Of a stretch of 45,788 nucleotides of DNA, positions 1 through 42,687 are shown piece by piece. The position numbers and the translations under genes were made by a program. Source of the DNA: Thermoanaerobaculia bacterium. Lineage in GTDB: Bacteria > Acidobacteriota > Thermoanaerobaculia > Multivoradales > UBA5704. The notes under the pieces were generated by a model that was not told the origin of the DNA, searched no databases, and saw nothing but the letters and a program-made list of their open reading frames with translations. Location of the stretch: assembly GCA_044226625.1 (NCBI GenBank), contig JBGAGQ010000055.1:1-45788 (forward strand), in the 5' to 3' direction. Numbering within the stretch: position 1 is the stretch's first letter; each line of letters starts with the position of its first letter.

Positions 1-138
1 ATCCTGCGGACTGGTCTCTCACCTCCGGTTGCTCCCCACCCCGCCTCACGGCGACGCAGTTTCCTTTGGTTTCAGGCCGGAGAGCGTCTGCCTGGAGAGG
101 ACTTGCACCTCTCTGAACGAATGCGCTCACGGGCGCAC
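1..138 (-). mobile_element. Group II intron, 5' end (start of domain I); the rest lies left of the window
   Basis: The minus strand from 138 reads GTGCGCCCGTGAGCGCAT...GAGAGGTGCAAGTCCTCTC...AACTGCGTCGCCGTGAGGCGGGGTGGGGAGCAACCGGAGG: a GUGYG 5' boundary plus domain I hairpins typical of bacterial group II introns. CHAT-like coding sequence begins abruptly at 139. Confidence 0.85.
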
Positions 139-618
139 GGTGCGGCGGCCACCAAGGCCGCCGTGCTCGAACGCATGCCGCGCAGCCGCATCCTCCACTT
201 CGCCACCCATGGTCTCCTGGGCGACGTCGAGAAGGAAGATGTTCCTGGCGCTATTGCCCTCACTCCATCGGGCGGCGATGAGAAGGGGCTGTTGACCGCC
301 GCCGAGGTCATGAGCCTCAGTTTGAAGGCCGAGCTGGCCGTCTTGAGCGCCTGCCGCACCGGCGACGGGCGGCCGAGCAGCGACAGCATCGTCGGCCTCT
401 CCCGGGCCTTCCTCGCCGCCGGGGTCCCCAGCCTCATCGTCTCCCTTTGGTCGATCCCCGATAACTCCACCTCGCTCTTGATGAAAGAACTCTACCTGGC
501 GCTCTCCCAGGGTCTGGGAAAAGCTCAAGCCTTGCGGGAGGCCATGCTCGCCACCCGGAGGCTCCATCCGGACCCGCTCCATTGGGCAGGGTTCGCCCTC
601 CTGGGCGAGGGGGCCTGA
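139..618 (+). pseudogene. C-terminal part of a CHAT (caspase-like) protease gene interrupted by the intron
   Basis: GAAATKAAVLERMP..ILHFATHG (catalytic His), LAVLSACRTG (catalytic Cys), GLSRAFLAAG, SLWSIPD and PLHWAGF are CHAT motifs. The ORF-track start at 103 lies inside the intron. Confidence 0.85.
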
Positions 619-673
619 AAGAGGCCTCGCCGGACTAATACAAACGCACTCCTAGAGTGTCTTATGGTACGCC

Positions 674-1729
674 ATGGAGGACTTCATCCTGACGCTAGTG
701 CCGCTGCCTGACGGGCACTTGGTGCGCGCCGACTGTCAGCTGATTGGCCAGCCCGAGCCGCGCCGGATCAGGCTCGAAGAGCGGCAGAAGCTTGAGGAGC
801 TGGGAGCGCGGCTCGCGGAGCGTCCCCTTAAGGAGATCACGGAAGTGGTGAAGGTCGGCCGAGATCTCTTCGGTCGCCTGTTCGGCAAGGAGCTCGCGGC
901 CCCCTTCTGGGAAGCGTCGGAGAAGGCACGGAACGACGGCGGCTTGAGGGTTCTGCTGCGGTTCGCAAAAGACGACCGCTTGCAGGACCTCCCCTGGGAG
1001 CTGCTGCACGACGGCCGCTCGCCTCTGGCCTTAGACCCCGCGACGGCGCTCGCGCGTTATATCGAGATGCCGCAACCGATCAAGGTGCCGCGGCCGAAGG
1101 GGCGGCTGCGGGTGCTCTTCACTTCGGCCTGCCCCCCCCTGGCCCAACGGCTTGACCTGGGAAGCGAGGAAAGAAGGGTCCGCCGCGCCCTGGAACTCGC
1201 AGGTGTGGACCCCCAGATTGAAAACCGGGTCACCTTGGAGCTGCTGAAGCTTCTCTTGATTCAGGCCGAGCACACGGGTAAGCCTTTTCACGTCTGGCAT
1301 CACGCCAGCCACGGTTTTCTCGACCGGCAGGGAAGCTTCCATCTTGTCCTCGAAGGTGGTGAAGAGGGGCGGCATGTCGGGACCGACGAGGTCTCCGGCA
1401 TCCTCGCGCAATGCCCCAGCCTGCTGGCCGTCGTGCTCAATGTTTGCCACGGGGCAGCCCTCGCCACCTCCCTCGCCTGCGCCAAGGTCCCGGTAGCGAT
1501 CGGGTTCCGCGAGCAGATCCAGGACCGCGCCGCCTTGCTGTTCGCCGAGCGCTTCTACAAGAGCCTTCTAAGGCATCCCGTGGAGGTCGCGCTGGCGCAC
1601 AGCCGGCTGGCGCTCGCCTACCAGGGCTGCCCACTGCTGAACTGGACGAACCCCATCCTGTACACGAGGACCACCAGGGCGGTCCGCTTCGTGGAGGAGC
1701 GCCATGGAAGATCTCACGGAAGAGCCTGA
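674..1729 (+). CDS. Stand-alone CHAT-domain (caspase-like) protease
   Basis: LQDLPWELL, VWHHASHG (His), VVLNVCHG (Cys), FAERFYKSL and W..PILY motifs; 351 aa. Confidence 0.85.
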   Translation: MEDFILTLVPLPDGHLVRADCQLIGQPEPRRIRLEERQKLEELGARLAERPLKEITEVVKVGRDLFGRLFGKELAAPFWEASEKARNDGGLRVLLRFAKDDRLQDLPWELLHDGRSPLALDPATALARYIEMPQPIKVPRPKGRLRVLFTSACPPLAQRLDLGSEERRVRRALELAGVDPQIENRVTLELLKLLLIQAEHTGKPFHVWHHASHGFLDRQGSFHLVLEGGEEGRHVGTDEVSGILAQCPSLLAVVLNVCHGAALATSLACAKVPVAIGFREQIQDRAALLFAERFYKSLLRHPVEVALAHSRLALAYQGCPLLNWTNPILYTRTTRAVRFVEERHGRSHGRA

Positions 1730-4700
1730 AATTGGCGTAGCGGAGGAGGGCGAGGATTTCGATCCCGCGGTGAGAGATTTCGTGCGCGTAGACGAGGACG
1801 ACTTGCCGGCGATTCCGCCCCCGCCCTCCCTTCCCGAGCTCGACGTTCCCCCGGACCTACTAGACGACCTGGAGGGAGAGACCTTCGGACCGGCAGACGC
1901 CTATCACGGCGAGAACGACGAGAGGGATGTTGAAGAGGAAGCGGAGGAGAAGGAGGATTACAGCGACGACGACGATCCAGCCGCCCTGTGGATCGACAAA
2001 TCGCTCATCGCGCGCGTCAACCAGATCTTCGTCGCGCCGCCGGGCTACGGCGAATCTCTACAGAAGCTACGCGCGCGGATCCTCAACAGCCACGTCTTCA
2101 TCCTGCATGGCGGAGAGCATTCGGGCAAGCTGACTTGCGCCCTGCACCTCGCGCAGGACCTCCTCACTCGGAGCGGTAAGGAGCCGAGGATCGGCTGCTA
2201 TCGCCGCCGCGCGGACGAGTCGCCGTCGCTTCTCGATCTCGTGCGGCAGGATGCCGTCAAGAGAGACCGCGCCTACATATTCGAGGACGCGTTCCCTAGC
2301 CTCTCGACGGAGGATCTTGAGCCGCCGTTTCTCAACCGGTTGAACGAGAGACTACAGGACAGGGGGTCTTTCCTCCTTCTGACGACCGAGAGACCGGTGC
2401 AGGAGCTACCCGTTAGCGTGGCGAAGGTGCACGTGGCGATCTGCGACCTGAGCCGCGTTTTCCTCAACCACCTCGACGTGTATCGCACCAACCTGATCGG
2501 CGCCGACCGCATCGTCATCGACGACGAGGCCCTCGATCTCGCCGGCCAAAACTGGGATGCGCTTAAGGGCGACCTGAAAGACCCCGATCAGATCGACGAG
2601 TTCTGCCGACGGCTGGGTGTCCAGGGAGGAGTACCGAGCGCAGAGGAGCTGAAGAAGCTCGCCCGGGAGATTGCCCTGCGCCGGATCGAGGCGGCACGCC
2701 CCTGGTTCGCGGGCCTCAGGCTGCATGAGAAGCTTTTCGCCTTCCTGGTGGTCCTCTTTCCGGGCCGCGATGGCCTGAGCCTGTACGAGATCTTCCTCGG
2801 TGCCGTCGCCCAACTGCGCGGTCACGGACTTCGGCTGAAGGATCCGCGCGAGCTCGGTTACGACGATCTCCTCGACCGCATTCGGGCTGTGGAGGGGCCG
2901 ACGCGCGAGATCGATTTCCAGGAGCGGGCTATCGGCGGCGAGGTGGAATGGCAGATTAAGAACTACAACCATCTGCTCTGGTCTCTGGTGCCGTGGTTCC
3001 TCGAGGAGATCCAGAGAAGCCTGGGAAAGCAGGGGGCGGAAGCCCGCCGGAGTCTGGCGGTCGCCGTCGGCAGGATCGGGCTCCATCACCCGGCCCAGCT
3101 CCGAGACCGGCTCGAGGAGCTGGCAACGCGTCCAGTCGCCAATGTAGCCGCGGCGACCGGCTATGCCTTCAGCGAGGTCTGCTTGCGCAACCGCGATGCA
3201 GACCAGAGGGTTTGCGAGGTTCTCGCCGAATGGGTGGCCTCCCGGCAGTCTCGCCTGATGTGGGCGGCGAGCTCCTGCATCTGGCGGGTGTACGGCGCCT
3301 TGAAGCGGAGTGGGCGGGACACCGCGAAGACGCGAGAGCACCTGCTGGAAACGCTCGAAGAGCTGATCTCCAGGCTGGCGGAGCCGCTAGGCCCCGAGGA
3401 TCGCAGGGCCGCTGCGGCGATCGCCAGCGACAACTGCCAAGACGCCAAGGCGGCGAAGCGCCAGACCGACGAGACCCTCAAGTCCTGGGCGGACAAGACC
3501 TACAAGGGTGCTCGGACCGCTATCCAGCGGATCGCTGCAGCCGACCCGGAGGGGATGATTGCGAGACTGCGGCTCTGGCTGGCCGGTGGTCGGCCGGCTC
3601 TGCGTCGCATAAGCATCGGGGTGATCCGCCAGCTTTTCGCAGACGCAGCGCGGGAATCGGGCCCGCCACCTCGGCGGCATCTGGCGCTTTCCGAGCTCGT
3701 CGAGCCCGTCCTCGCGCATTGCGGCGAGGGGAGCCAGACCAGGGAAGCGCTGTTCAGAGCGCTGGCCGGCTGGGTGGGCCAGTCCGAGGCGCCCAGGGCC
3801 ACGAAGCTGCTGCTGCAGGCCGCCAATCGCCTCCAGGGCAGGGCGGCGAGAGCGTTTCGCAGCAGCCTTCAGCCGTGGCTCGAGGACCCTTCCCCGGATG
3901 TCCGGCGCCTGGGGGGAGCGCTGCTCATGCGCTCTCTCCTGCTCGAGGGGGCGGTCGTCCCGGCGCCCGACTCGGCTCTGGGCGCCCTCGTCCTCGACGC
4001 TTCCACCGAGGCCTTGGCCGAGACTGACTATGAGCCGATCGCACGGCAGGTCTGGAACCTCTTGCAACCCCGCCTCGGTCTACGGCTGGTCCGCATGGGC
4101 GAGGGGCGCGAGCTGGCGAGCCCGGGCCAGCTTTTCCCCGCGCGCGGCGTCCTGGCGGGCGCATCCCGTCCCCGGCTGTTGCTGCCCACGTTCGACGCCA
4201 TCGGCGCGGAGAGTCTCTGCCTCGCCGTCGTCCTCACCACGGGGCCGATCCTCGACCTCGCGGAGGCCTCAATGGCCGCCTGGTCAAGCAACCTGCTGCT
4301 GGTCGATTTGGCCAAGGCGGGCAAGGAGCAGGATCTCCCGCGGGCGGTCTACCTCAACCTCCGTTCGCCAGCAGGGGGTCTCGCCGATCTGACGGCGAGG
4401 ATCGACGACCGCTTTGCGGCGTTGCTCGCTCCTGTCGGCAGCGGCGTGCACGAGGCCGAGTGCGACGAGATGGAAGCCAGGCTCGAACAGTGGCTCGGGG
4501 AGCTTGACGAGCCGCCCAGCCTGGCGGAGCCGCCGGATCGGGCGCTCGCGATTCTGCGTGGGGTGCTGGGGCTGGCGGAGTCCCATCTCGACAGGTGTTC
4601 GGCCCTGCTGACGCGCTGGCTGGCGCCAAGCTCCGGCGAACTCGCATTGCGCATGGGCGCCACCGCCGTTCGTCTGCTGCTGCGGATCGAGGCGAACCAC

Positions 4701-5777
4701 CCCCCTCCCGCGGCGCCGGCGCGGGCTCTGCTTTTCGGGTTGGCGACCGCCCTTGGCACCTACGGCCCCGAGGGCAGCCTCGAAACGGCGCTCTCGATCG
4801 TGTGCCGCTGGTTGCCGCTAACAGATTGGCGCGCCGCCCTGCTCGACGGCGCTGGCGACAGGCCCGCCGCGCTTCGGCAGTGGATCGAAGGCCTCCTGCC
4901 AAGTCATGCGGAGCTGCTATCCCAGACTCTGACGACTTGGCGGCGCTCCGTCGACGAGGGATCGGAGGAGGACGCGCGGCGGCTGAGCGAGGCCGTGGAT
5001 CGAATCGAGGAGTGGATCGTCGCCGGCCGGATGGCGAATCCTGTAGAGACGCCGCCGAGCGTCGTTCCCGAGGTAGCCAGCCAGCCCCTTCTCGCCCCTG
5101 CGGTGGTGAGGACGGCGGTCCACTCCTCCTCCCACACGGCTGATCCCGCGGGCTTCCCCATGGTGTGGATCGAAGAGATCGGCGCCTACATGCACTGGCT
5201 GCCCGTCACCAAGCTCCAGTTCGAGAAGTTCGTCACCGAAACTCCCGACCCACTCTTCGACGACGCCTGGTATCGCCGGACGCTCGACCTCAACCCGCGC
5301 GTAGCCGTCCCCGAGATCGATCCCGAGAACTACCTCCAGGCCTTCCTCACCGGAATCCTTCCTGAGGAGGCGAGCCGGTTCGCCGCTTGGTGCGGCGAGG
5401 ACTACGCGCTGCCCACCCTAGCGGATTGGCAAAAGGCCTATGCCGCCCTCGCGGCCGAGCCAACCTGCGCGCTGGCAACTCTCGATCTCTCCGCTACGGC
5501 TGGAGAACTCGTGCGGACGTTCCTCACCCGGATCGAATCGTCCGCTGCCGCCCGGCCCGGCCCGGCGCGCACCCGAGTCGATCAGATGCTCATGCGGCGC
5601 GGCGTGCTGGAGTGGGTCAAGCAGGACGGGCGGTCCGGCCGCTGGGGGGGGATGGGAGAGCCGGCGCCTCATTTCAAGATGCTCTGGTCCATCGAGAGAG
5701 GACTGGCCGTGCCCCGCGACGCGGGTTCCTCCCGCTCCAGCGCCTTCGGGTTTCGGCTGATCCGCAGGCCGGCATGA
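1704..5777 (+). CDS. 1357-aa multidomain protein: acidic N-terminus, degenerate STAND-like P-loop, helical (HEAT/ARM-like) repeats, degenerate vWA-like segment, C-terminal FGE/SUMF1-like domain
   Basis: SD GGAGGAG before the ATG. VFILHGGEHSGKLT (Walker A-like), AYIFED (Walker B-like). ALVLDASTE and AVVLTTGPILD are vWA-like with a broken MIDAS. C-terminal LPVTKLQFEKF, FAAWCG..ALPTLADW, VLEWV and FGFRLIR fit the FGE-sulfatase fold. Confidence 0.7.
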   Translation: MEDLTEEPEIGVAEEGEDFDPAVRDFVRVDEDDLPAIPPPPSLPELDVPPDLLDDLEGETFGPADAYHGENDERDVEEEAEEKEDYSDDDDPAALWIDKSLIARVNQIFVAPPGYGESLQKLRARILNSHVFILHGGEHSGKLTCALHLAQDLLTRSGKEPRIGCYRRRADESPSLLDLVRQDAVKRDRAYIFEDAFPSLSTEDLEPPFLNRLNERLQDRGSFLLLTTERPVQELPVSVAKVHVAICDLSRVFLNHLDVYRTNLIGADRIVIDDEALDLAGQNWDALKGDLKDPDQIDEFCRRLGVQGGVPSAEELKKLAREIALRRIEAARPWFAGLRLHEKLFAFLVVLFPGRDGLSLYEIFLGAVAQLRGHGLRLKDPRELGYDDLLDRIRAVEGPTREIDFQERAIGGEVEWQIKNYNHLLWSLVPWFLEEIQRSLGKQGAEARRSLAVAVGRIGLHHPAQLRDRLEELATRPVANVAAATGYAFSEVCLRNRDADQRVCEVLAEWVASRQSRLMWAASSCIWRVYGALKRSGRDTAKTREHLLETLEELISRLAEPLGPEDRRAAAAIASDNCQDAKAAKRQTDETLKSWADKTYKGARTAIQRIAAADPEGMIARLRLWLAGGRPALRRISIGVIRQLFADAARESGPPPRRHLALSELVEPVLAHCGEGSQTREALFRALAGWVGQSEAPRATKLLLQAANRLQGRAARAFRSSLQPWLEDPSPDVRRLGGALLMRSLLLEGAVVPAPDSALGALVLDASTEALAETDYEPIARQVWNLLQPRLGLRLVRMGEGRELASPGQLFPARGVLAGASRPRLLLPTFDAIGAESLCLAVVLTTGPILDLAEASMAAWSSNLLLVDLAKAGKEQDLPRAVYLNLRSPAGGLADLTARIDDRFAALLAPVGSGVHEAECDEMEARLEQWLGELDEPPSLAEPPDRALAILRGVLGLAESHLDRCSALLTRWLAPSSGELALRMGATAVRLLLRIEANHPPPAAPARALLFGLATALGTYGPEGSLETALSIVCRWLPLTDWRAALLDGAGDRPAALRQWIEGLLPSHAELLSQTLTTWRRSVDEGSEEDARRLSEAVDRIEEWIVAGRMANPVETPPSVVPEVASQPLLAPAVVRTAVHSSSHTADPAGFPMVWIEEIGAYMHWLPVTKLQFEKFVTETPDPLFDDAWYRRTLDLNPRVAVPEIDPENYLQAFLTGILPEEASRFAAWCGEDYALPTLADWQKAYAALAAEPTCALATLDLSATAGELVRTFLTRIESSAAARPGPARTRVDQMLMRRGVLEWVKQDGRSGRWGGMGEPAPHFKMLWSIERGLAVPRDAGSSRSSAFGFRLIRRPA

Positions 5778-5807
5778 CCCGGGCCTGCAGCAAGCAAGGA
5801 GTCTTTC

Positions 5808-6812
5808 ATGAGCCCCGACCGCCAACTCATCTGCCCGCTTAGCCTCAGGGAGACCGCGGTGGCCGGATCCCCGGCGAAGTGCAACTGCTGCAGCGAAGTC
5901 CTGCCGCCACTTTACGTCAATGAGGCACAGGGCCTCCAGCCGTTGCCGATTCAGTTCTTCGGCCTGAGCGGACATGGCAAAACCGCTTACCTGGCGGCGC
6001 TGACTGTGGCGCTGCAACGAGTGAACTCGGTCTGGAACGGCTTCACGGCAACGCCGGCGACCGAGCAGTCCCGCAGGCTAGTCCGGGAAGCCAATGTCTA
6101 CTTCGCCAGCGGGCAGCTGCCGCCACCCACGCCCTTAGGGTCCAAGGGCTGTTTCCTGATGCTGCTGAACCGCATTCCGAAGTGGATGAAAGCAGCGCTC
6201 ATGATCCGCGACTGCTCGGGCCAGGCTTTCCGGGACTTCAACGTCGATCTGCAGGAAGCCAGCTACCTGCTCAGGGCACCGCTCACCTTTCTGTTCATCA
6301 GCCTCAAGGACCTCCAGGGCGGGGATACCGTCGATGTCCTGCTCAATGACTACCTCGATGCCCTCGCCGCGCACGGGGTGCGGCCCGAGCTGGAGATGAA
6401 GAAGCTCGTGGTCGTGCTTACCAAAGCGGATCTCTTGCAGGAGGAGCTCCCGGACGACCTGCTGCAGGCCGTCCGGGAAGATCGGCTTTGGCAGGCATCC
6501 CAGATGGAAACGGAGCCCAGGTGGTCCGCCGTGGCGGACATGGACACCGACCTGGGAGCCCTGGGTGAGATCAGCCGGAGCATCGAAGCTTGGATCTGCC
6601 GGCGAGCCGCCGGCCGCACCCTGGTGACGTTGGCGCGCGACCGCAGCATCGAGATTCGGTTCACCCTCGTCTCGTCGACCGGCTCCGCACCGCGCGCTCA
6701 GGACAATGTCCTGGCGACTGGCTGGGAGCCGAGCCGTGTCCTCGATCCGCTGATCTGGGCCCTGGAGCTCAACGAAAGACGCATTAAGGATATGCGGCGG
6801 TATTTCCGGTGA
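5808..6812 (+). CDS. TRAFAC-class GTPase with N-terminal Cys cluster (resembles the double-GTPase family of NTP-dependent conflict systems)
   Basis: G1 GLSGHGKT, PPPT (G2-like), G3 DCSG, G4 TKAD; N-terminal CPLS...CNCC; SD AGGAG. Confidence 0.75.
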   Translation: MSPDRQLICPLSLRETAVAGSPAKCNCCSEVLPPLYVNEAQGLQPLPIQFFGLSGHGKTAYLAALTVALQRVNSVWNGFTATPATEQSRRLVREANVYFASGQLPPPTPLGSKGCFLMLLNRIPKWMKAALMIRDCSGQAFRDFNVDLQEASYLLRAPLTFLFISLKDLQGGDTVDVLLNDYLDALAAHGVRPELEMKKLVVVLTKADLLQEELPDDLLQAVREDRLWQASQMETEPRWSAVADMDTDLGALGEISRSIEAWICRRAAGRTLVTLARDRSIEIRFTLVSSTGSAPRAQDNVLATGWEPSRVLDPLIWALELNERRIKDMRRYFR

Positions 6813-6862
6813 AACGAACCCGGCGCCGCACGTCGGCGTGGAGGTAGCACCGGCGGGGACGC

Positions 6863-8068
6863 TCACGAAACGTAGTCGCCGATGTTCGTCTCGACCTTGG
6901 CCATCTCCTTCTCCTTCCACATCTCCACGATCCGCTCGGCGATCTCCGATTGAGCGCCCGCGATGCGTTGCATCAAGGTCATGTTCGCCTGCAGCTCGGT
7001 CTCCTGCCGCTGCCTGTTCCTCTCCGAGTTAAGGAACATCTCGGTTTTTGCATAGTCGTCGACCTCGGAGGTCTCGTTCCGGGTCTTGACGTCCAGCCTG
7101 TGCTGCGTCACCTCTCGGAACTGCTTGGACGACGCGACGACCTGGAACTCGCGGTCCTCCAGCTTCTGCTCATAGGGTCGGTAGGGACTCAGTGTCGACA
7201 GCAGCTTGACGCTGATTGGCGCGGTCTCGAGAGCGATGAAAAGCAGAGTGATGAACAGGTTCGCCGAGTGCATGCCGTCGCTCGCGTCGTTGAGCTGGGC
7301 GAGCGCCTCGAGCCGTGCCAAGAGCCCGTCCGCTTTCTCCCGCGCATCCGCCGCCTGCTTGATCCGCTGCTTTCGCTCTTCCTCGAGTCTGGAGATTTCT
7401 TTCTCGTTCGGTAATATAAGTTCGTTGTTCTTTTTCTCCAGATCGTCAAGTTGCCGCTTCATCTCTTTGAGGCGCAGCTCCTTCTCACCGAACACCGGAC
7501 CCTTGCCCGGAATGAACGTTCCCCCGGTCCCCTCCGCTTCCTGTATCCATTCCTTGTACAGCTTGTCTAACGCCTCTTGCTTGTCGCGGATCTCTTGATG
7601 AAGCTTCTGATTCTGATCCTTGAGGCCCTGGAGTGCTCCGTAGGCGCTATCGACGGCTCTTACTGTTTGCTGATAAGTCTCGTTGTTGTGCTGGGCGATT
7701 TGTGCCTCGATCTCGCGCTCGAAAAGCTTGAGCTCGAGAGGCTTGGCGATCACCATGGCCAGCAAAGCGGCGAGCAACAATCTGGGTAGTGCATAGAGAG
7801 CATCCCACCAGAAGCTCGCCTGCTTGCGCATGCCGGAGATGATGACGCGATCGAGATTGAAGATCATGATCGCCCACAGCAGGCCGAACAGGCAGGTGAC
7901 CCATACCGATCGAAATACGGTGAAGAGGGCGTACCCACCAGAGAGGCCGGCGAGCATGGCGGTAAAGAAGATGGTTGCGCCGATGCCGACGTACTTGGTG
8001 ACCTCGGTGGGGCACTCTTCCAAGACTTCGCGGTTCGCACCGGAGCAAAAGATGAAAAACCCTTTCAT
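6863..8068 (-). CDS. DUF4407-like membrane protein with long coiled-coil (401 aa; start corrected to 8068)
   Basis: MKGFFIFCSGA..CPTE.TKYVGIG start with SD AGGAGG and an ATGA overlap with the kinase stop. Three N-terminal TM segments (IFNLDR, IAKPLEL..FE.EI), a coiled-coil with EAEGTGGT..PGKGP, and a C-terminal TM (FIALETAP). Confidence 0.75.
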   Translation of the reverse strand: MKGFFIFCSGANREVLEECPTEVTKYVGIGATIFFTAMLAGLSGGYALFTVFRSVWVTCLFGLLWAIMIFNLDRVIISGMRKQASFWWDALYALPRLLLAALLAMVIAKPLELKLFEREIEAQIAQHNNETYQQTVRAVDSAYGALQGLKDQNQKLHQEIRDKQEALDKLYKEWIQEAEGTGGTFIPGKGPVFGEKELRLKEMKRQLDDLEKKNNELILPNEKEISRLEEERKQRIKQAADAREKADGLLARLEALAQLNDASDGMHSANLFITLLFIALETAPISVKLLSTLSPYRPYEQKLEDREFQVVASSKQFREVTQHRLDVKTRNETSEVDDYAKTEMFLNSERNRQRQETELQANMTLMQRIAGAQSEIAERIVEMWKEKEMAKVETNIGDYVS

Positions 8069-9648
8069 TTCGACCCTCCTATGACCTGGTTCGTCGCACT
8101 CCTGAGTTGGTCGAAGAGGGCGCTGATCTGCCCTCCAAGGCGGACGGCAAGGCGCGGGAAGCGCCGGGGTATCCGGGCGTGGAGCCCCCGGACCGACTCC
8201 ACCGCACCCCGTTTCAGCGAAGGGTCCTTGACCTGCGCCGTGAGGACGAGCGCGATCGGCAGGCGAATCGCCGGGATAGCAGCCGGCAGGACTCGCAAGG
8301 AGACCTGCTGGTGGATGTGGCAGGTGGGGACTGCGACCGATCTCATGACTGGGATGGGCCACACACGCACCGAGGTATATTCCGTGGCGGACACGCCGTT
8401 CCTCGCGCGGGCGCTTAGCGTGTAGGTCGTTCCTCCGGATGGCGACAGCTCGATCGAGCCTGTGGCGTCAATGGCGCCGACACCCTGGTCGATAGATACA
8501 TGATGTGCGCCTGTCACTCGCCAGGAGAGGCGCGTACGCGTCCCTTCAACGAGTGTCTCTGGATCGGCGACGAAGAAGGCGATCTCCGGCCCTCGTTGGG
8601 TGGCGCGCAGGACCAAGGCCCACTGCTGGTAGGAGGTCCGCAAGCGTGGATCGGAATGGCCTTCGTTCATGGTCGCCTTGAGCTTCTGCACTAGGGCCCT
8701 GGGCAAGGCGTCGAAGTCGCCGCGGTACTGGTGGTACAGCGGCTCGGAATCCGGGTTGAAGATCGGATCGTCGGGAGCGATCTCCGGCCACTCGTAGCGC
8801 TCGAGGTAGCTCTCGACCGACTCTCGGCTGAGATAGTTATTGAAGAAGAAGAGTGGGTGAAACAAGAAGAGCAGGTGATGAATGCCGATGAAAACCGACC
8901 AGGTGTCAGTGAAACGATCGACTCGAATTGCCGCGCCGGTTGTGGGCTGCGTCACCATCTGCTCTTTAATCTCCGGCGCCAACCACTCGTCGCGCTTGCC
9001 GAAGGTAGTGGGTTGCTCGTCCACACGATCGGTCACTGCGCCGCTGTCGTAATCGATGATGGCCAGATGGCACTCTTCGATGTTGACCAACAGATTGGGA
9101 GCGTTGATGTCGGCATGAATGAACGACATCTCGGCCAGCGCTTGGAAACCCTCGACGAGCTCGGTGGCGAGTAGGAGCCGATCCTCCATGCTCAACCTCT
9201 CATACGGGGAGTAGCCCCCGTGATAGTCGTCGAGGATGGCTGATAAAGAGACGTACCCTTCCGTGTCGAGGCGGTCCGCCGCATACCCCAGCACCTGGCG
9301 GCCGTCCATCTCGCCGATGAAGCTGAACTGGGGCAGGGCGCGGAGCGCCGGAAGGCTTTCGAGACCGGGTTGCCCCGAGGCGGCGCGCCGGGCGTTGCTC
9401 TCGCGGATCCTGCCTTGCAGCTTGCGGATCGCCTCGAACCCCTTGCGCGCACTGCCGAAGCCGTTGTCGCGCAGGATCTTGACCGCCTGAGCCGAGGCGG
9501 GAGCGGCACCGTTGATCGAAAGGCAAGCGTAGACCTCGCCGAAGCCGCCGCGCGCGAAGATGGGGCCCGCGAGTTCCAAAGAATGGATATACCCGAAGCC
9601 GGGTCGCAAGCCCGAGTGGAAACTATCGATGTTGGTGACGACTAGCAT
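8065..9648 (-). CDS. TerY-P/YegI-like Ser/Thr kinase with Ig-like C-terminal region
   Basis: ARGGFGEVY Gly-loop, AVK, HADINAPN catalytic loop, IIDYDS (YegI-type DxDS instead of DFG), WLAPE, D.WS. C-terminal beta-rich segment LSWRVTGA..SIDQGVG...TYTLSA. Confidence 0.8.
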   Translation of the reverse strand: MLVVTNIDSFHSGLRPGFGYIHSLELAGPIFARGGFGEVYACLSINGAAPASAQAVKILRDNGFGSARKGFEAIRKLQGRIRESNARRAASGQPGLESLPALRALPQFSFIGEMDGRQVLGYAADRLDTEGYVSLSAILDDYHGGYSPYERLSMEDRLLLATELVEGFQALAEMSFIHADINAPNLLVNIEECHLAIIDYDSGAVTDRVDEQPTTFGKRDEWLAPEIKEQMVTQPTTGAAIRVDRFTDTWSVFIGIHHLLFLFHPLFFFNNYLSRESVESYLERYEWPEIAPDDPIFNPDSEPLYHQYRGDFDALPRALVQKLKATMNEGHSDPRLRTSYQQWALVLRATQRGPEIAFFVADPETLVEGTRTRLSWRVTGAHHVSIDQGVGAIDATGSIELSPSGGTTYTLSARARNGVSATEYTSVRVWPIPVMRSVAVPTCHIHQQVSLRVLPAAIPAIRLPIALVLTAQVKDPSLKRGAVESVRGLHARIPRRFPRLAVRLGGQISALFDQLRSATNQVIGGSK

Positions 9649-9666
9649 CGGCGCTACCTAACCTTC

Positions 9667-10557
9667 TCAAGGAGCCGCGTGGCGCCGCTTCCGCCGCTGG
9701 TACTCGCGCGCCGCGCCGGTAACGATAAGGCCGAGGGTGGCGTCGTCCTCGATGAGAGAGCGGTCCTTCAGACCTTGGAGAAAGTGTTGCATTCGGTCCT
9801 TGAGGGACGGACCACCGCAGGGTTGGGAGAAGTAGCCGCCTAGGCAAGCGTAGAATTCCACCATAGGCTCCTCGGCCTTGATCCACAGGTCGCCTTGCGC
9901 GTCGGTGCCGTAGAGGAGCCGGTCGGCTGAACAGACTCCGTCGGTGCAGAGCAACAGAATGTCGCCAAACCGTGGGTCCTTGTCGACGGCAACCACGGTG
10001 GGTGGGAAGCGGTCGAACTCCTGAGAGAACGCGACGAGGTTGTAGAGCTGCTCCTTGCCATCGCTGAACAGGGAGTGGGGGCGCAGGTAGTTGGCCGAGC
10101 TCCACGGCAGCCCGTTCGTCGGCGCAGATTCGTCGAAATTGCCCCGCAGATGCCAGATGGCGCCGTTGCCGACATAGGCCGCCAGCAGGTGGGTGGGGGT
10201 CTCGACGCCGAGAAGAAGAGTCGTTCCGTAGCAAGGTTGAGAGGCGTCCGGAGGGGGCTCGCGCTTACCGAACTCGCCCCGCAGGTCCTGTCGCAGCCTG
10301 CTGAAAAGGGCGCAGAGGCCTGCGGACGAAGCGGGCTTCTGCGACTGCGCGAGCGCAGCCGCCCGCTGGACGGCGAACCGGGCAGCCTCTCCCGCGTTTA
10401 TGTAGCTGCCCAAGCCGTCCGCCACGGCGACGCCCCGGTAGGTCGAATCACTTTCTACCCAGAGCACCGCCGCATCTTCAGTCTCCTCCTCCCTGGCTCT
10501 CAATGTGACCGAGGCCAGGCAACAAAGAGAGCCTAGGGGCTCGCCGTCCGCCGTCAT
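9667..10557 (-). CDS. PP2C-family phosphatase (TerY-P/YegK-like)
   Basis: VAVADGLGS, GTTL, VGNG, LLCTDGV and DDATL motifs; ATGA overlap with the vWA stop. Confidence 0.85.
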   Translation of the reverse strand: MTADGEPLGSLCCLASVTLRAREEETEDAAVLWVESDSTYRGVAVADGLGSYINAGEAARFAVQRAAALAQSQKPASSAGLCALFSRLRQDLRGEFGKREPPPDASQPCYGTTLLLGVETPTHLLAAYVGNGAIWHLRGNFDESAPTNGLPWSSANYLRPHSLFSDGKEQLYNLVAFSQEFDRFPPTVVAVDKDPRFGDILLLCTDGVCSADRLLYGTDAQGDLWIKAEEPMVEFYACLGGYFSQPCGGPSLKDRMQHFLQGLKDRSLIEDDATLGLIVTGAAREYQRRKRRHAAP

Positions 10558-11228
10558 AGCGAAGGGATACCCGTGTTGATGGACATTGACTCGTGGAGGA
10601 AGCCCCTGAGGCTCTCGGCGTCGTGTACGGTCTGGTATCCCCTGGCGGGATTGCTGGCCAGGTGCCTGAGATGCTCCTGCGCCACGGTGTCCTGGCTGCC
10701 GAGCCCGGCGAAGTAGGTCGAGCAGACTGTGATCGCTTGGTTGCGCTTGATCTCTTCGGAGACGCGCAGGCTCTCCGCTGGGTCTACGACCCCACCTTCG
10801 CCGTCGCGGCCATCCGACATCACCACGAGAACCACCGATGAGGGGACGCCGCGGGGGGCCTGGCGCAGGAAATCCTCCGCGACTCGCTTAGCCTCCAGGA
10901 GGCCGGACCCGATGTTGGTTCCGCCGCCATGGTTCTGCAGGGGGTCATAGTTGCCATCGTCATTGACGTCGATGGCAGCAGTGACTGGCGTGTGGAGCTG
11001 GGCGTTCTCGTCGAAAGTCACGACGGAGAAAGAGAAGTTCTTGACGTAGCGTGATTGGCGGAAGCGAGTGAAGAGGCCGCGGACGGCGGAGTTCACCGCC
11101 TCAGCCTTGCTGATGTGGCCGGCCGCTGGCTCTGACATCGAGCCGCTGCCGTCCAGGACGAGGATTCCCAACTGGTTGAAGGACGGTGGCGCCAGACTGA
11201 CGGTAGTGGTGCGCGATCTTTCAAACAT
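10554..11228 (-). CDS. vWA-domain protein, TerY/YegL-like
   Basis: Intact MIDAS: LVLDGSGSM, GGTN, VMSDG. First gene of the vWA-PP2C-kinase triad. Confidence 0.85.
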   Translation of the reverse strand: MFERSRTTTVSLAPPSFNQLGILVLDGSGSMSEPAAGHISKAEAVNSAVRGLFTRFRQSRYVKNFSFSVVTFDENAQLHTPVTAAIDVNDDGNYDPLQNHGGGTNIGSGLLEAKRVAEDFLRQAPRGVPSSVVLVVMSDGRDGEGGVVDPAESLRVSEEIKRNQAITVCSTYFAGLGSQDTVAQEHLRHLASNPARGYQTVHDAESLRGFLHESMSINTGIPSL

Positions 11229-11420
11229 GTTTTCTCCGGCTTTCGGTTATGGATGCTGCCAGCCTCGGGGATCGAGGCAAATTACAGGCACGGTGCCCGG
11301 TGAGAAAGACACCGAAGGGGGCGGAAATGTATGAAGGCGGAGAGAATGAAGGGTGCACCCGTTTCCACCGCCTCAAAACCTCTCAGAACGTTGGCCCGCA
11401 ACTTAAGGAGCGGGGGCACC

Positions 11421-12020
11421 TAGTGGCTCGTAACGAAGGAATTAAAGCCGCTATGATCTTGCTTCAGGGCATGACCGAATCCAAGATTGTGTTGAGCGTT
11501 GCAGAGCGTGAAGAGCTTGAGCGGCGTCGCGGGTAGCGCAAGCTTCGGGCGGACGACGTGCGCCGCGCTCGTCTGATTCTGATGTTGGCCGCGGGAGAGT
11601 CATACACGTCGATTCAGACGGTTCTGGGCTGTGACCGCGGCTACATCGGCCGATGGAAAAGCGCTTTCTGGAGGAGCGCTTGGCGGGCCTGCACGCTCGC
11701 CATCTCGGCCGAGTAGCGACCATTCAGACTCCTCAGATGGAGGCTCGAATCCTCTCCTGGACTCGGCGTAAGCCGACCGATGGTTCGACGCATTGGACGG
11801 CGAGAAAGCTCGCGAAAGAGCTTGGCGTGTATCCCACATGTTGGTCGCGCGGGTCTGGAAGCGAGCGAATCTGAAGCCCCATCGGCTCGAACGATATATG
11901 GCGTCGAATGACCCTGATTTCGAAACGAAGGCCGTGGACGTGATAGGGCTTTGCATGAATCCGCCCCAGCACGCCGCGGTGTTCTGCGTCGACGAGGAAA
12001 CGGCGATTCATGTCTTGGCA
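11421..12020 (+). mobile_element. IS630-family element remnant with a pseudogenised transposase
   Basis: Putative left end TAGTGGCTCGTAACG at 11421. MTESKIVLSVAEREELER is followed by an in-frame TAG (11534-11536). Later fragments in different frames carry THWTARKLA, LKPHR, SNDPDFETKA.DVIGL.MNPP and VFCVDE. Truncated after the first catalytic Asp. Confidence 0.8.
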
Positions 12021-13017: not shown

Positions 13018-14088
13018 CTAAGGACAACGGACGAACGATGTCGTGTCGATCACCGGAGCCGCCGGGGGACCGGGGTAGCGGAAATAGATCCGCGCCAAAC
13101 CACCCCGGATGTCGAAGACCTCGATGCGCTGGAACAGGCTCGAGGGCGACGAGAGTGCTAGGGTGAATTTGCCCGAGGTCGAGCACGAGTCGATGACGTT
13201 GGCGAGGACCTGCCAGATGTCGTCGTTCGGGAAGGCGAGGATTCCGGAGGACGTTGAGGAGGTCCGCGCGGCCTCCACGGTCTCGTCGGTACCGGGGGCT
13301 CCGACGCGGTATTTCGCGGAGATCGCGAAACGATCCTGGAGGCAGAGCGAGGTCGAGGTGCCGGTGCAGGTCAGCGCCACGGGGAAGGTGAAGAAACCCG
13401 TTCCGGAACCGCCGACGGAGCCGTCGTGCGGTCCCACCACGTCGTTTCCGTTACCGTCGAGGGACCAGACGGCGACCAGGCCCGGCTGCGGCGCGGTGAT
13501 CGTCCGGTTGAGGAACTGGCGAATTTGCGCCTGCGTCCGCGCGATGCTCCAGAGGCGGACCTCATCGATCGAGCCTTGAGGGCTGAACGGGAAATTGAAT
13601 TCGCTGCCGATCCGCACATCGACGTTGTCTGTGGTCAAGGGCCCCGTCTCGGGAACGCTCAAGACCAGCTCGCCGTTGATGTAATGAAGGCGGCGCGTCC
13701 CGTTGAAGACGACCGCGACGTGGGTCCAACCGCTCGGGACCACGCCCCCTTCCTGGATCGAGGCGTTGCCTTTGAGGTAGGACCGGAGGCGGTTGCCGCA
13801 AACTCCGACCCACCACGCGCGGGAGAAATCCTTGCCCGCGATCGTGCTGCAGCCGTTCGGATCGGTGATCGCCACCCAGGCTTCGAGCGTGAAGCGATTC
13901 GTCGGATTGAGCGCCGGGCTGTGCGGAACGAGGATGTACCCCTCCGTCGGCCCGGACAGGTGGAACCAGGCGCCGAACGGCTGGGCGCCGGCCTCGCGGG
14001 GGACCATCAGACATCCGAGGGCGAACACGCCCCCGAGCAGAGCGGCACGAAGGGTCGGAACGGAGCGGAGAGGCGAAAGGGCGTTCAT
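13018..14088 (-). CDS. Secreted LamG/concanavalin-like domain protein
   Basis: Signal peptide (..EAGA). FTLEAWV, WTHVAVVFNG..LHYING and GSIDEVRLWSIART are LamG_3 motifs. C-terminal domain begins CTGTSTSLCLQDRF. Confidence 0.8.
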   Translation of the reverse strand: MNALSPLRSVPTLRAALLGGVFALGCLMVPREAGAQPFGAWFHLSGPTEGYILVPHSPALNPTNRFTLEAWVAITDPNGCSTIAGKDFSRAWWVGVCGNRLRSYLKGNASIQEGGVVPSGWTHVAVVFNGTRRLHYINGELVLSVPETGPLTTDNVDVRIGSEFNFPFSPQGSIDEVRLWSIARTQAQIRQFLNRTITAPQPGLVAVWSLDGNGNDVVGPHDGSVGGSGTGFFTFPVALTCTGTSTSLCLQDRFAISAKYRVGAPGTDETVEAARTSSTSSGILAFPNDDIWQVLANVIDSCSTSGKFTLALSSPSSLFQRIEVFDIRGGLARIYFRYPGPPAAPVIDTTSFVRCP

Positions 14089-14287
14089 CGAACGGACCTC
14101 CTCGAATTCAAAAGGAATCATCAGAAACGGATAGCAATGCGGCGATCTTAGCTTTGAATGGGCGCGGGAACAGCTCTCGGCGTTTCAGGTTCGAGGCCGC
14201 CCCGCGGATCTCGTGGGGTTCGCCGGCGAAGCCCTCGGGGCGGAAGGCCGACACCGTCTAGAATTCTCGGCCGGAGAATTCCCCGCC

Positions 14288-14677
14288 ATGTCGGACCACC
14301 ACGATCCACCGCCCACCGAGTCGGGGCCGCATCTCCCGGCGACGCTCCATCCGCGCCTGCGGGTGATGCGCGGCGAGGAGATCGCCTTCGGACCGGGTAA
14401 GGCCGATCTGCTCGCTGAGGTGGCGGAGGCCGGGACGCTCGCCGAGGCGGCGCGGCGGTTGGGGATGTCGTACATGCGCGCTTGGAAGCTGCTGCAGACG
14501 ATGAACGCGAGCTTCCGCGCGCCGGTCGCGATCGCCACCCGGGGAGGCGCGGCGCGGGGCCGGGTCGAGCTCACGGAGACGGGTAAGAGGGTGCTCGCGC
14601 TCTATCAGGAGATGGACGCCGCGTGCCGGCAGGCGGCGGATCCGGCCTGGCGGGAGCTCGCCGATCTGCTCGCCTGA
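14288..14677 (+). CDS. modE: ModE-like winged-helix regulator (HTH only, no Mop domain)
   Basis: FGPGKADLL..V.EAGTL..AARRLGMSYMRAW.L..MN, RGG..G..LT; directly upstream of modABC. Confidence 0.85.
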   Translation: MSDHHDPPPTESGPHLPATLHPRLRVMRGEEIAFGPGKADLLAEVAEAGTLAEAARRLGMSYMRAWKLLQTMNASFRAPVAIATRGGAARGRVELTETGKRVLALYQEMDAACRQAADPAWRELADLLA

Positions 14678-42534: not shown

Positions 42535-42687
42535 GAGACGGAGCCATGGGCCAGCGAGTCGGTCTCGAGAAGCGGGAGACGGTCTTACGGAGCCGGAGAC
42601 GATCTCAGAAGGCGGGAGACGCTCTCGCCGAAGCAGCAGACGGTCTCCGGACCGCGGAGACCGTCTGATAGGACCGGGCTCCGTCTC
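42535..42687. repeat. Array of eight 11-bp GAGACNGTCTC-like units at 20-21 bp spacing
   Basis: Units start at 42535, 42556, 42576, 42596, 42616, 42637, 42657 and 42677. The first (GAGACGGAGCC) and last (GGCTCCGTCTC) are exact reverse complements. Confidence 0.8.

Follow-up and report, generated by a model that had tools for sequence, protein, structure and literature searches.

What kind of system is encoded at the start of a 45,788-nucleotide (nt) stretch of DNA from a Thermoanaerobaculia bacterium (assembly GCA_044226625.1, contig JBGAGQ010000055.1), where a CHAT protease, a very large scaffold protein and a GTPase of the DO-GTPase2 family are encoded by co-oriented, closely packed genes? 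This stretch, hereafter the window, comprises an entire contig (C48) of a 6.6 Mb genome assembled in 133 contigs, with an estimated completeness of 97.94% and contamination of 5.53%. An earlier note had taken the locus, together with a further CHAT gene at the edge of the contig, for an undescribed protease-GTPase conflict system whose combination of parts matches no system that could be named. The comparison with related loci presented here yields a different answer: this is not an undescribed system, being a described, experimentally untested family in a GAP1-less, fused form that was previously unseen. We favor, with moderate confidence, its interpretation as a reduced derivative of the GAP1-N2 'double-GTPase' conflict subtype, one with a single GTPase and no GAP1, which would be GTP-switched and protease-executed. 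Judging from conserved gene order, its unit is one of three genes, the second of which encodes two distinct parts:

674..1729, forward strand: CHAT (caspase-like) protease, P0002, 351 amino acids (aa), Pfam CHAT at 9.9e-14, dyad H213/C258
1704..5777, forward strand: scaffold, P0003, 1357 aa, characterized by an AlphaFold2 (AF2) model, Foldseek and alignments
5139..5777, forward strand: FGS domain, residues 1146-1357 of the scaffold, characterized by an AF2 model, Foldseek and VIA-align
5808..6812, forward strand: DO-GTPase2, P0004, 334 aa, ortholog of the 'GTPase B' of related operons, Pfam DO-GTPase2, Walker B DCSGQ instead of DxxGE

Together with a 5'-open frame at 1..618 (gene 1, product P0001), these make up four co-oriented open reading frames (ORFs) on the forward strand, and the spacings that the earlier note had read between them, namely a 55-nt gap, a 26-nt overlap and a 30-nt gap, were reproduced exactly. 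Several of its other readings were likewise confirmed: the His/Cys dyads of both CHAT proteins (H70/C118 in P0001, H213/C258 in P0002), the 1357-aa product of 1704..5777 as an inactive-STAND/helical protein with an FGE-fold domain, the GTPase with intact G1, G3 and G4 motifs and an N-terminal Cys cluster, and a window with one such GTPase and neither MoxR nor GAP1, on which Pfam and clade-specific hidden Markov model (HMM) searches agree. Its placement of the start of gene 1 at position 139 had to be given up, as the reading frame is already open at base 1, where the contig itself begins.

Related loci were collected by scans of genome contigs (24 loci) and metagenome contigs (64 loci), and 83 non-duplicate loci, the window included, were classified with component HMMs built from 12 canonical loci. 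The duplicates L054, L091, L045, L049 and L079 were dropped, as was L102, which gave no match; the fragments L042 and L055 were counted with the fused form. The following arrangements were distinguished:

Canonical, complete (25 loci): scaffold - GTPase A - FGS - GAP1 - GTPase B
Canonical, cut by contig ends (8 loci): partial copies of the canonical order
No GTPase A (2 loci): scaffold - FGS - GAP1 - GTPase B
Type II (9 loci and 2 partial ones): CHAT - scaffold - FGS - GTPase B, with neither GTPase A nor GAP1
Other order (4 loci): GAP1 downstream of the GTPase
Type III, or fused (the window, L002, L014 and L041, that is 4 loci, and the fragments L042 and L055): scaffold::FGS fusion
Too short or too distant (27 loci)

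Full-length homologs of the three core genes occur in unchanged order in dozens of loci; the five phyla represented are, according to the sequence records, Acidobacteriota, Chloroflexota, Verrucomicrobiota, Planctomycetota and Gammaproteobacteria. The conservation of gene order across phyla on which the earlier note had staked its claim was thus borne out for these three, and failed for gene 1, an unrelated neighbor. The ancestral operon has six genes, in the order CHAT - scaffold - GTPase A - FGS - GAP1 - GTPase B, and the gene between FGS and GTPase B is detected by Pfam GAP1-N2, in two cases also by GAP1-M (3e-9, 8.4e-8, 6.4e-6). In otherwise canonical operons we also observed tandem duplications, of GTPase B in L008, L056 and L062 and of FGS in L010, L060, L063 and L064.

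The main-text sections of Kaur et al. compared here take a DO-GTPase and GAP1 as the defining parts of GTPase-centric systems, with the GTPase often present as two paralogs and often bearing zinc ribbons; partners of the GAP1-N2 type include a rapidly evolving FNIII-repeat protein and, in planctomycetes, FGS effectors (Kaur et al., 2020; PMC7159879). Since the relatives of the window combine GAP1 (N2+M) with two DO-GTPases, their canonical operon can be understood as a subtype of this GAP1-N2 family, and the locus itself very probably belongs to the same 'double-GTPase' subtype. At the family level it therefore maps onto an already named system, an outcome that the earlier note had itself named as speaking against novelty, and its relatives are a nameable six-gene GAP1-N2-type GTPase-centric operon (25 complete and 8 partial loci).

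How, then, did the window come by a lone GTPase? A quick IQ-TREE maximum-likelihood tree of 94 GTPase domain rows, rooted on the GTPase A clade, separates GTPase A and GTPase B into distinct clades (Shimodaira-Hasegawa-like approximate likelihood ratio test, SH-aLRT, 99) and unites the window, L002 and L041 in one clade (SH-aLRT 100). The latter lies inside a 20-row clade (SH-aLRT 94), with inner branching left unresolved, that also holds the GAP1-preceded GTPases of L005, L044, L047 and L053 and the type II clade. Because the window clade is nested among GAP1-preceded GTPases, its single-GTPase state is a secondary loss, and its placement is that of a descendant of GTPases co-evolving with GAP1-N2. 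In L002, whose GTPase is 62% identical to P0004, a 303-aa ORF between scaffold::FGS and the GTPase still aligns to positions 1-272 of the 534 of the GAP1 profile (E 1.4e-72); no ORF occupies this position in L041 or in the window, where the genes of P0003 and P0004 are 30 nt apart. Across the genome of the window, Pfam GAP1-N2 (PF20013) gave no match at E ≤ 1, P0004 is the sole above-cut-off match of DO-GTPase2, and clade-specific HMMs run on this 97.9%-complete genome recovered neither a second GTPase nor a GAP1 with E below 0.1, scaffold and FGS matches being confined to the window. The comparison of loci shows the window lineage as one in which the FGS gene was fused to the scaffold gene and in which GTPase A and GAP1 were lost.

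Elsewhere in the same genome, contig C24 encodes a 429-aa protein (L105:5801-7090, reverse strand) with an N-terminal zinc ribbon, a DO-GTPase2 match of 1.3e-3 that falls below the cut-off and a weak MMR_HSR1 match. It adjoins a 715-aa ORF (L105:7101-9248, reverse strand) that gave the sole, very weak (E 0.1) match of the clade GAP1 HMM. The two may represent a second, very divergent GTPase-GAP1-like pair.

The retained GTPase is recognizable by both profile and motif. P0004 scores 40.2 bits with Pfam DO-GTPase2 (PF19993), against a cut-off of 27 (E 4e-10), and displays the TRAFAC-type pattern of GxxxxGK[ST], DxxG and [NT]KxD as G1 GHGKT at 55, G3 DCSG at 135 and G4 TKAD at 205; G52, G57, K58, D135, G138, K206 and D208 are invariant across 25 GTPase sequences. 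Its N-terminal cysteines are at positions 9, 25, 27 and 28, and the first CPxC knuckle reads CPLS, as it also does in the closest relatives. Pfam Zn-ribbon families gave no match on P0004; such a ribbon is present in 60% of the DO-GTPase2 family and is not strictly defining. A word-indexed search places 28 proteins in the P0004 family at E ≤ 1e-3.

It is at Walker B that P0004 stands apart. The glutamate of DxxGE is conserved and a family hallmark of DO-GTPases in the compared sections of Kaur et al. (PMC7159879), whereas the GTPase of the window has DCSGQ. The residues at this position, tallied from the alignment column, are distributed thus:

GTPase B after GAP1: E in 31/31
Tandem GTPase B copies: E in 3/3
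GTPase A: E in 23/27, Q in 4/27
Fused type: E in L002, which has the GAP1 remnant; Q in the window and L041
Compact clade, 18 database proteins: 6 E, 4 Q, 4 D, 2 A, 1 R, 1 K
Type II, 11 loci: E in 1/11, with the G3 glycine also lost in 9/11

G1 and G4 are intact in both GAP1-less lineages, and G3 is intact in the window clade. Thus, two GAP1-less lineages appear to have departed independently from the hallmark DxxGE motif, and the aligned column shows that the GTPase remaining in the window has ceased to keep the family Walker-B glutamate. A complex prediction of P0004 with residues 700-1357 of P0003 gave no support and no verdict, and is counted for neither side. As a separate observation, the 528-aa product of L003:673-2259 (forward strand) is a fusion protein that joins a TIR domain (TIR_2, 1.3e-26) with a DO-GTPase of the GTPase B type, 39% identical to P0004; its vicinity holds no scaffold, FGS or GAP1 gene.

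Such departures raise the question of whether, after the loss of GAP1 and GTPase A, the leftover genes are non-functional and on their way to becoming pseudogenes. The window indeed lacks two components described as constant in the compared sections of Kaur et al. (PMC7159879), six different residues occur at the Walker-B glutamate position within the clade, and one zinc-ribbon knuckle is degenerate (CPLS not CPxC). Further, nearly all core genes of L014, and those of an adjoining DUF4407-kinase-PP2C-vWA operon described below, are split into 2-5 frame pieces, reflecting either long-read assembly error or decay. However, the L014 frameshifts strike the neighboring operon as well as the core and the record appears to be a long-read metagenome-assembled genome, so that assembly error is as likely as decay, and in the window all three core ORFs are intact, with G1, G3, G4 and the CHAT dyad retained. 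Moreover, ten fused scaffolds are full length (1315-1386 aa) at identities of 51-85%, with many invariant residues, and a 4-kb ORF that stays open across such divergence argues for the action of selection. We accordingly regard decay as very improbable: the upkeep of the scaffold, the G motifs and the CHAT dyad suggests that the reduced, GAP1-less derivative is still under selection.

What does the scaffold contribute? Its AF2 model covers residues 90-1140, was built from a 22-sequence alignment (P0003 numbering is that of the model + 89) and reached a predicted local distance difference test (pLDDT) of 83.8 and a predicted template-modeling score (pTM) of 0.75. Preceding the FGS domain, the following regions can be delineated in P0003:

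Residues 1-89: acidic disordered tail with 36 D/E, poorly conserved
Residues ~90-250: inactive STAND-like P-loop domain, alpha/beta (model residues 1-160)
Residues ~250-410: helical/winged-helix region with a small beta hairpin (model 160-320)
Residues ~410-750: HEAT/ARM solenoid (model 320-660)
Residues ~759-869: small, five-stranded alpha/beta domain of ~110-130 aa (model 670-780)
Residues ~890-1110: helical region (model 800-1022)

HEAT/ARM solenoids rank first among the Foldseek matches of this model (CAND1 at 5e-6, importins, SF3B1), which also include STAND-type proteins, namely SAMD9 (7e-5), NLRP9 and Avs4. A profile of the scaffold searched against the PDB recovered HEAT-like alphaRep, AP-2 and weak P-loop matches only. 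On 22 scaffold homologs, Pfam gave matches that were all sub-threshold: HEAT_2 in 5/22, nSTAND3 in 3/22, NACHT in 1/22 and iSTAND in 1/22 (E 0.022); the scaffold of the window itself is not matched by Pfam iSTAND (PF19995). Across 21 aligned homologs the P-loop reads GxxxSG[K/R/T], followed by L/F/Y in place of S/T. Neither the Walker A lysine nor the Walker B acid is conserved in the family, the latter being unconserved outside the window clade. With its Walker motifs so disrupted, the P-loop is probably inactive as an NTPase family-wide; a P-loop fold with disrupted Walker motifs, seen here in the model and the 21-sequence alignment, is an iSTAND-type trait.

The small alpha/beta domain at ~759-869, a candidate for the vWA that the earlier note had placed in this protein, carries a motif pair, LVLDAS and VVLTTGP; a comparison with a 3-sequence vWA profile by hhalign gave 7.5% probability only, and the Protein Atlas returned no usable match for the domain. 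We also observed that GTPase A ends in a ~110-aa domain (positions ~327-440 of the GTPase A HMM) that is met again, one or two times, inside scaffolds, as exemplified by L018:6661-8040 and L018:2782-6609, and by P0003 at ~705-867. P0003 has a single copy, which coincides in part with the alpha/beta domain; in the fused type one copy is kept and the C-terminal copy is gone. A remnant of GTPase A or GAP1 hidden in P0003 was considered and rejected, the HMMs detecting there only this shared domain.

The FGS domain at the C-terminus of P0003 gives the protein its sole Pfam match, FGE-sulfatase on residues 1162-1246, which at 19.2 bits is sub-threshold (cut-off 23.3). An alignment profile searched against the PDB gave chance-level helical matches only, and the fold was established by structure instead. 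The AF2 model (pLDDT 90.1) aligns by VIA-align with the diversity-generating retroelement variable protein TvpA (2y3c) at Z 12.4 and a root-mean-square deviation of 3.4 over 159 residues, as well as with PvdO (Z 12.0), CarF and formylglycine-generating enzymes (FGEs; Z 10-11), and the top 10 Foldseek matches show the FGE fold throughout. Since the 14 aligned FGS domains have no invariant or nearly invariant Cys and lack the catalytic Cys pair, this domain of the formylglycine-generating-enzyme/C-type-lectin fold is non-catalytic by prediction and best seen as a binding module, not an enzyme. Its profile finds 494 cluster representatives at E ≤ 1e-3 (211 at 1e-30) among 1.84 billion; the top 150 matches are mostly stand-alone proteins of ~210-250 aa, with one >1300-aa fusion. 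Likewise, FGS is a separate gene of ~220 aa in the 25 canonical loci.

The CHAT protease P0002 scores 51.9 bits with Pfam CHAT (PF12770; 9.9e-14), against a cut-off of 24, with H213 in a WHHxGHG motif and C258 in NVCxG. Both motifs are preserved in 18 of the 21 orthologs encoded directly upstream of scaffolds, and the dyad is entirely lost in the other three (L009, L011 and L021). The 26-nt overlap between the genes of P0002 and the scaffold is identical in L002, which fits coupled translation of the two. A CHAT ortholog lies immediately upstream in 11/25 complete canonical loci; in several of the remaining ones the contig ends at the scaffold, and L004 and L018 have no upstream CHAT. In some loci this upstream effector slot has been exchanged or inactivated, being taken by an EAD8 protein or Trypco2 or having no CHAT.

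Several observations on this slot and its surroundings deserve separate mention. In the canonical locus L011, the upstream CHAT-like protein with the lost dyad (L011:455-1348, forward strand) has an EAD8 domain, and an FHA protein and an EAD8-kinase fusion are encoded downstream (L011:11069-12811 and 13154-14308, both forward strand); by analogy, this pattern fits effector recruitment via matching EADs as proposed in the compared parts of Kaur et al. (PMC7159879). An M28/PA-domain peptidase adjoins two different reduced forms, upstream in L002 (L002:2282-3976, forward strand) and downstream in L016 (L016:11069-13018, reverse strand). Just past the vWA gene of the L002 island, a 607-aa fusion of CHAT and FGE-sulfatase (2.9e-33 and 6.2e-29) is encoded at L002:15570-17393 (reverse strand), and a 932-aa protein with a CHAT domain at its C-terminus at L002:18174-20972 (reverse strand). 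CHAT and FGS are thereby paired again in this island, in another architecture.

Is such a unit directed at invaders at all? It could instead serve housekeeping or developmental signaling (stress proteolysis, envelope remodeling or differentiation), with the GTPase and the neighboring phospho-module controlling CHAT. CHAT proteases act in cell division and differentiation, and the NCBIfam matches of the core proteins, which are all far sub-threshold, include HetF on P0002 (51 bits against a cut-off of 1200). Kinase/PP2C pairs and vWA domains are general signaling parts, the FGS domain is conserved rather than diversifying, and among the ORFs scanned no phage or mobile-element gene was recognized beside the locus. 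Against this stands the distribution of the system, which is accessory and patchy: P0004 has homologs (E ≤ 1e-10) in 5 of the 401 genomes sampled from the class and in none of three further species of the genus, and the system is found in five phyla. The exchange or inactivation of the upstream effector slot and the tandem duplication of GTPase B and FGS genes in some loci point the same way, patchiness, effector exchange and duplication being hallmarks of conflict systems in the compared text of Kaur et al. (PMC7159879). Hence, we consider a purely non-immune role unlikely and lean slightly toward a role in conflict or defense.

The fourth co-oriented ORF, which the earlier note had counted as a first CHAT component of the system, calls for a different assignment:

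1..618, forward strand: 3' fragment of a TPR-CHAT gene, frame open at the contig start, Pfam CHAT at 8e-45 with a partial profile

The CHAT match of P0001 aligns to profile positions 123-289 of 289 only, and this partial match, combined with the frame open from the contig start, indicates that gene 1 is the 3' end of a longer gene. Among longer proteins P0001 has 1930 matches, the best being TPR+CHAT proteins of 797-840 aa with identities of 93% (to P0042), 70% and 71%. None of the related loci compared has an ortholog of gene 1 upstream of the system, the upstream gene in L002 being the M28 peptidase, and in a related Acidobacteriota record the homolog of P0001 is QOF89_1673, with the scaffold and GTPase of the system at QOF89_5055 and QOF89_5057. 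Gene 1 as a second effector was accordingly rejected, as it is not conserved with the other three genes and belongs to an abundant TPR-CHAT family; going by gene order, it is a neighbor outside the conserved three-gene unit.

On the other side, a tight operon on the reverse strand converges on the GTPase gene, with a 50-nt spacer to its DUF4407 gene. Listed from the GTPase outward, it comprises:

6863..8071, reverse strand: DUF4407 membrane/coiled-coil protein, Pfam DUF4407 at 1.1e-88, likely start at Met98 of a 499-aa ORF (6863..8362)
8065..9648, reverse strand: Ser/Thr-type protein kinase, its C-terminal tail beta-rich and bearing a hydrophobic segment, Pfam Pkinase at 3.8e-7 and PK_Tyr_Ser-Thr
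9667..10557, reverse strand: PP2C-family phosphatase, Pfam PP2C_2 at 1.9e-15, with orthologs in L002 and L014
10554..11228, reverse strand: stand-alone vWA protein, first gene of the operon, Pfam VWA at 7.6e-11, metal-ion-dependent adhesion site (MIDAS) intact (DGSGS ... SDG)

The junctions of this operon are a 4-nt overlap, an 18-nt gap and a gap of ~1 nt. In the DUF4407 protein (403 aa in the L002 ortholog), two to three hydrophobic segments and one further such segment flank a long charged helical stretch, and the kinase bears the motifs HADINAPN and DYD. The kinase is 56% identical to its counterpart in L002 and 46-57% to that in L014, the vWA protein 64-69% across L014 and L002, and synteny with both loci ends after the vWA gene. 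DUF4407 is convergent to the GTPase in 6/6 fused-type loci, and the full kinase-PP2C-vWA set is present in the four that reach far enough; no such module was detected in the 27 canonical or type II loci that extend at least 1.5 kb downstream. The locus comparison shows that the convergent vWA-PP2C-kinase-DUF4407 operon travels with the fused system. With kinase, PP2C and vWA beside the core in L002, L014 and L042, it corresponds to the optional 'third theme' of GAP1-N2 systems, which in the sections of Kaur et al. compared here is a kinase (with a beta-rich domain or a transmembrane segment), PP2C and stand-alone vWA, found in actinobacteria only (PMC7159879).

In other parts of the window, a tandem repeat at 42556-42647 (20-nt unit, 4.6 copies, 71% matches) is unrelated to these findings. 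A promoter and terminator scan of positions 1-12000 gave counts no higher than in shuffles, and an Rfam search gave no match.

Do the convergent operons form one system? They might instead be two independent ones, CHAT-scaffold-GTPase and a TerY-P-like module, carried side by side on one mobile island with linkage as their only relationship. Defense genes gather in islands, the module has its own tight operon on the opposite strand, and its absence from 27/27 canonical or type II loci implies that the core does not need it. As summarized in the passage of PMC7699616 considered, moreover, the vWA, PP2C and kinase triad, TerY-P (Gao et al., 2020), is reported as an anti-phage system by itself. 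On the other hand, the module adjoins 6/6 fused-type loci over 43-72% protein identity, in the same orientation and with the same synteny end. Module and core show a similar spread of identity (56-69% and 62-67%, respectively, to L002; 44-73% and 43-72% to L014), and a search of 20 further genomes of the family at 1e-20 did not recover the module kinase. PADLOC reported no family named TerY-P for the module proteins: the kinase matches mad6 (1e-9) and PD-T4-6 only, and the vWA and PP2C proteins match none. Kaur et al., in the sections compared, report kinase-PP2C-vWA as a recurrent GAP1-N2 theme (PMC7159879). Mere linkage of two systems is thus a possibility to be taken seriously, though not the one that we favor.

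For the GAP1-less derivative of the GAP1-N2 subtype a mechanism can be proposed, which we infer along the logic of Kaur et al., whose compared sections put forward a two-threshold model with peptidases for conflict systems (PMC7159879). The scaffold, with its inactive STAND-like P-loop and HEAT solenoid, would act as an assembly platform that keeps the co-translated CHAT protease inactive, and the lectin-fold FGS domain and/or the solenoid would bind a trigger coming from the invader or from cell damage. The GTPase, with G1, G3 and G4 intact, would bind guanine nucleotide and serve as a switch or timer licensing the rearrangement of the scaffold, whereupon the freed CHAT (H213/C258) might cleave cellular or system targets, so that the infected cell stops growing or dies. 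A second threshold or a membrane effector could be supplied by the TerY-P-like phospho-module and DUF4407, and the phospho-module might stand in for the regulation formerly exerted by GAP1 and GTPase A. This specific wiring of the parts is rather doubtful. Tentative, too, is a joint reading of the fused clade as a working hybrid in which GAP1 and the second GTPase have been functionally replaced: a lone DO-GTPase, with a Ras-like Gln or another residue for Glu, would be wired to the inactive-STAND::FGS scaffold and CHAT, and a recruited TerY-P-like phospho-switch and DUF4407 would have taken over threshold-setting or execution. We hold it possible, albeit improbable, that all of this is true at once. 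If it were, the co-variation of DxxGE and GAP1 would imply that GAP1 acts via that glutamate, as a true regulator of GTP hydrolysis.

Several points weigh against a GTP-switched conflict system of this kind. Our literature searches yielded only Kaur et al. (2020), passing mentions and unrelated papers, and no experiment on any DO-GTPase system, so that the conflict role is itself a prediction. PADLOC, run as the earlier note had proposed, has no model matching any core protein, whether of the canonical or of the reduced form, and families of the fn3 type were found neither among 12 ORFs of the window nor among 20 + 72 ORFs of related loci. As the contig begins inside gene 1, anything farther upstream is unseen. 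The variable Walker-B position (Q, R, A, D, K, E) might reflect relaxed selection instead of a new regime. The conservation of the FGS domain (mean pairwise identity 0.66, against 0.55-0.70 for the rest of the scaffold) is unlike that of a diversifying invader sensor, and the phospho-module, being a separate transcription unit, could be a hitch-hiking neighbor.

DO-GTPase systems make up a large, computationally predicted family of NTP-switched conflict systems, and the locus provides their minimal, three-gene form, which would be easier to reconstitute than a six-gene operon. The comparison of 83 loci furnishes a testable rule, that the presence of GAP1 tracks the Walker-B glutamate, which points to the function of GAP1. 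It further indicates that two lineages could dispense with the 'constant core pair' while selection on the remainder persisted, and it connects both a TerY-P-like phospho-module and the uncharacterized DUF4407 family with a DO-GTPase system.

How does the locus compare with known systems? STAND/NLR-like Avs proteins are anti-phage sensors, and SAVED-CHAT and Craspase are caspase/CHAT effectors of type III CRISPR systems. With these it shares a P-loop and solenoid resembling SAMD9, NLRP9 and Avs4 in Foldseek searches, and a caspase-like protease as the likely executor. It differs from all of these in its P-loop, which is predicted to lack activity, in having the protease as a protein of its own and in the absence of a CRISPR array from the window; SAVED or cas families of PADLOC and NCBIfam gave no match for the core proteins. 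The convergent operon encodes the identical three activities of TerY-P (vWA/MIDAS, PP2C and Ser/Thr kinase) (Gao et al., 2020) as summarized in the passage of PMC7699616 considered, but has a fourth gene, DUF4407, and always lies beside the fused core.

The MoxR-vWA-iSTAND ternary systems, as the compared sections of Kaur et al. present them (PMC7159879), likewise have an inactive STAND-type P-loop protein as constant third component, with FGS as the commonest effector (~22% of examples) and caspase-like peptidases among the effectors. The window differs from them in having neither a MoxR AAA+ nor a CoxE-type vWA partner, and its NTP switch is a GTPase; with Pfam iSTAND on 1/22 homologs (E 0.022) and nSTAND3 on 3/22, membership of the scaffold in the iSTAND family is not shown.

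Closest are the GAP1-N2 systems of the same sections (PMC7159879). The window shares with these a DO-GTPase2-family GTPase with a candidate N-terminal zinc ribbon, relatives whose operon includes GAP1 (N2+M) and a second, paralogous GTPase, an FGS domain, an adjoining kinase, PP2C and vWA, and a patchy, mobile-type distribution. It differs in having no GAP1, a single GTPase, Gln for the Walker-B Glu and no FNIII-repeat protein. It also differs in its upstream CHAT and in the inactive-STAND/HEAT scaffold of its family (1250-1780 aa), the CHAT and the large scaffold going unmentioned for GAP1-N2 systems in the main-text parts compared (PMC7159879). Finally, the kinase theme, reported from actinobacteria in those sections (PMC7159879), is seen here in Acidobacteriota, where it is joined by DUF4407.

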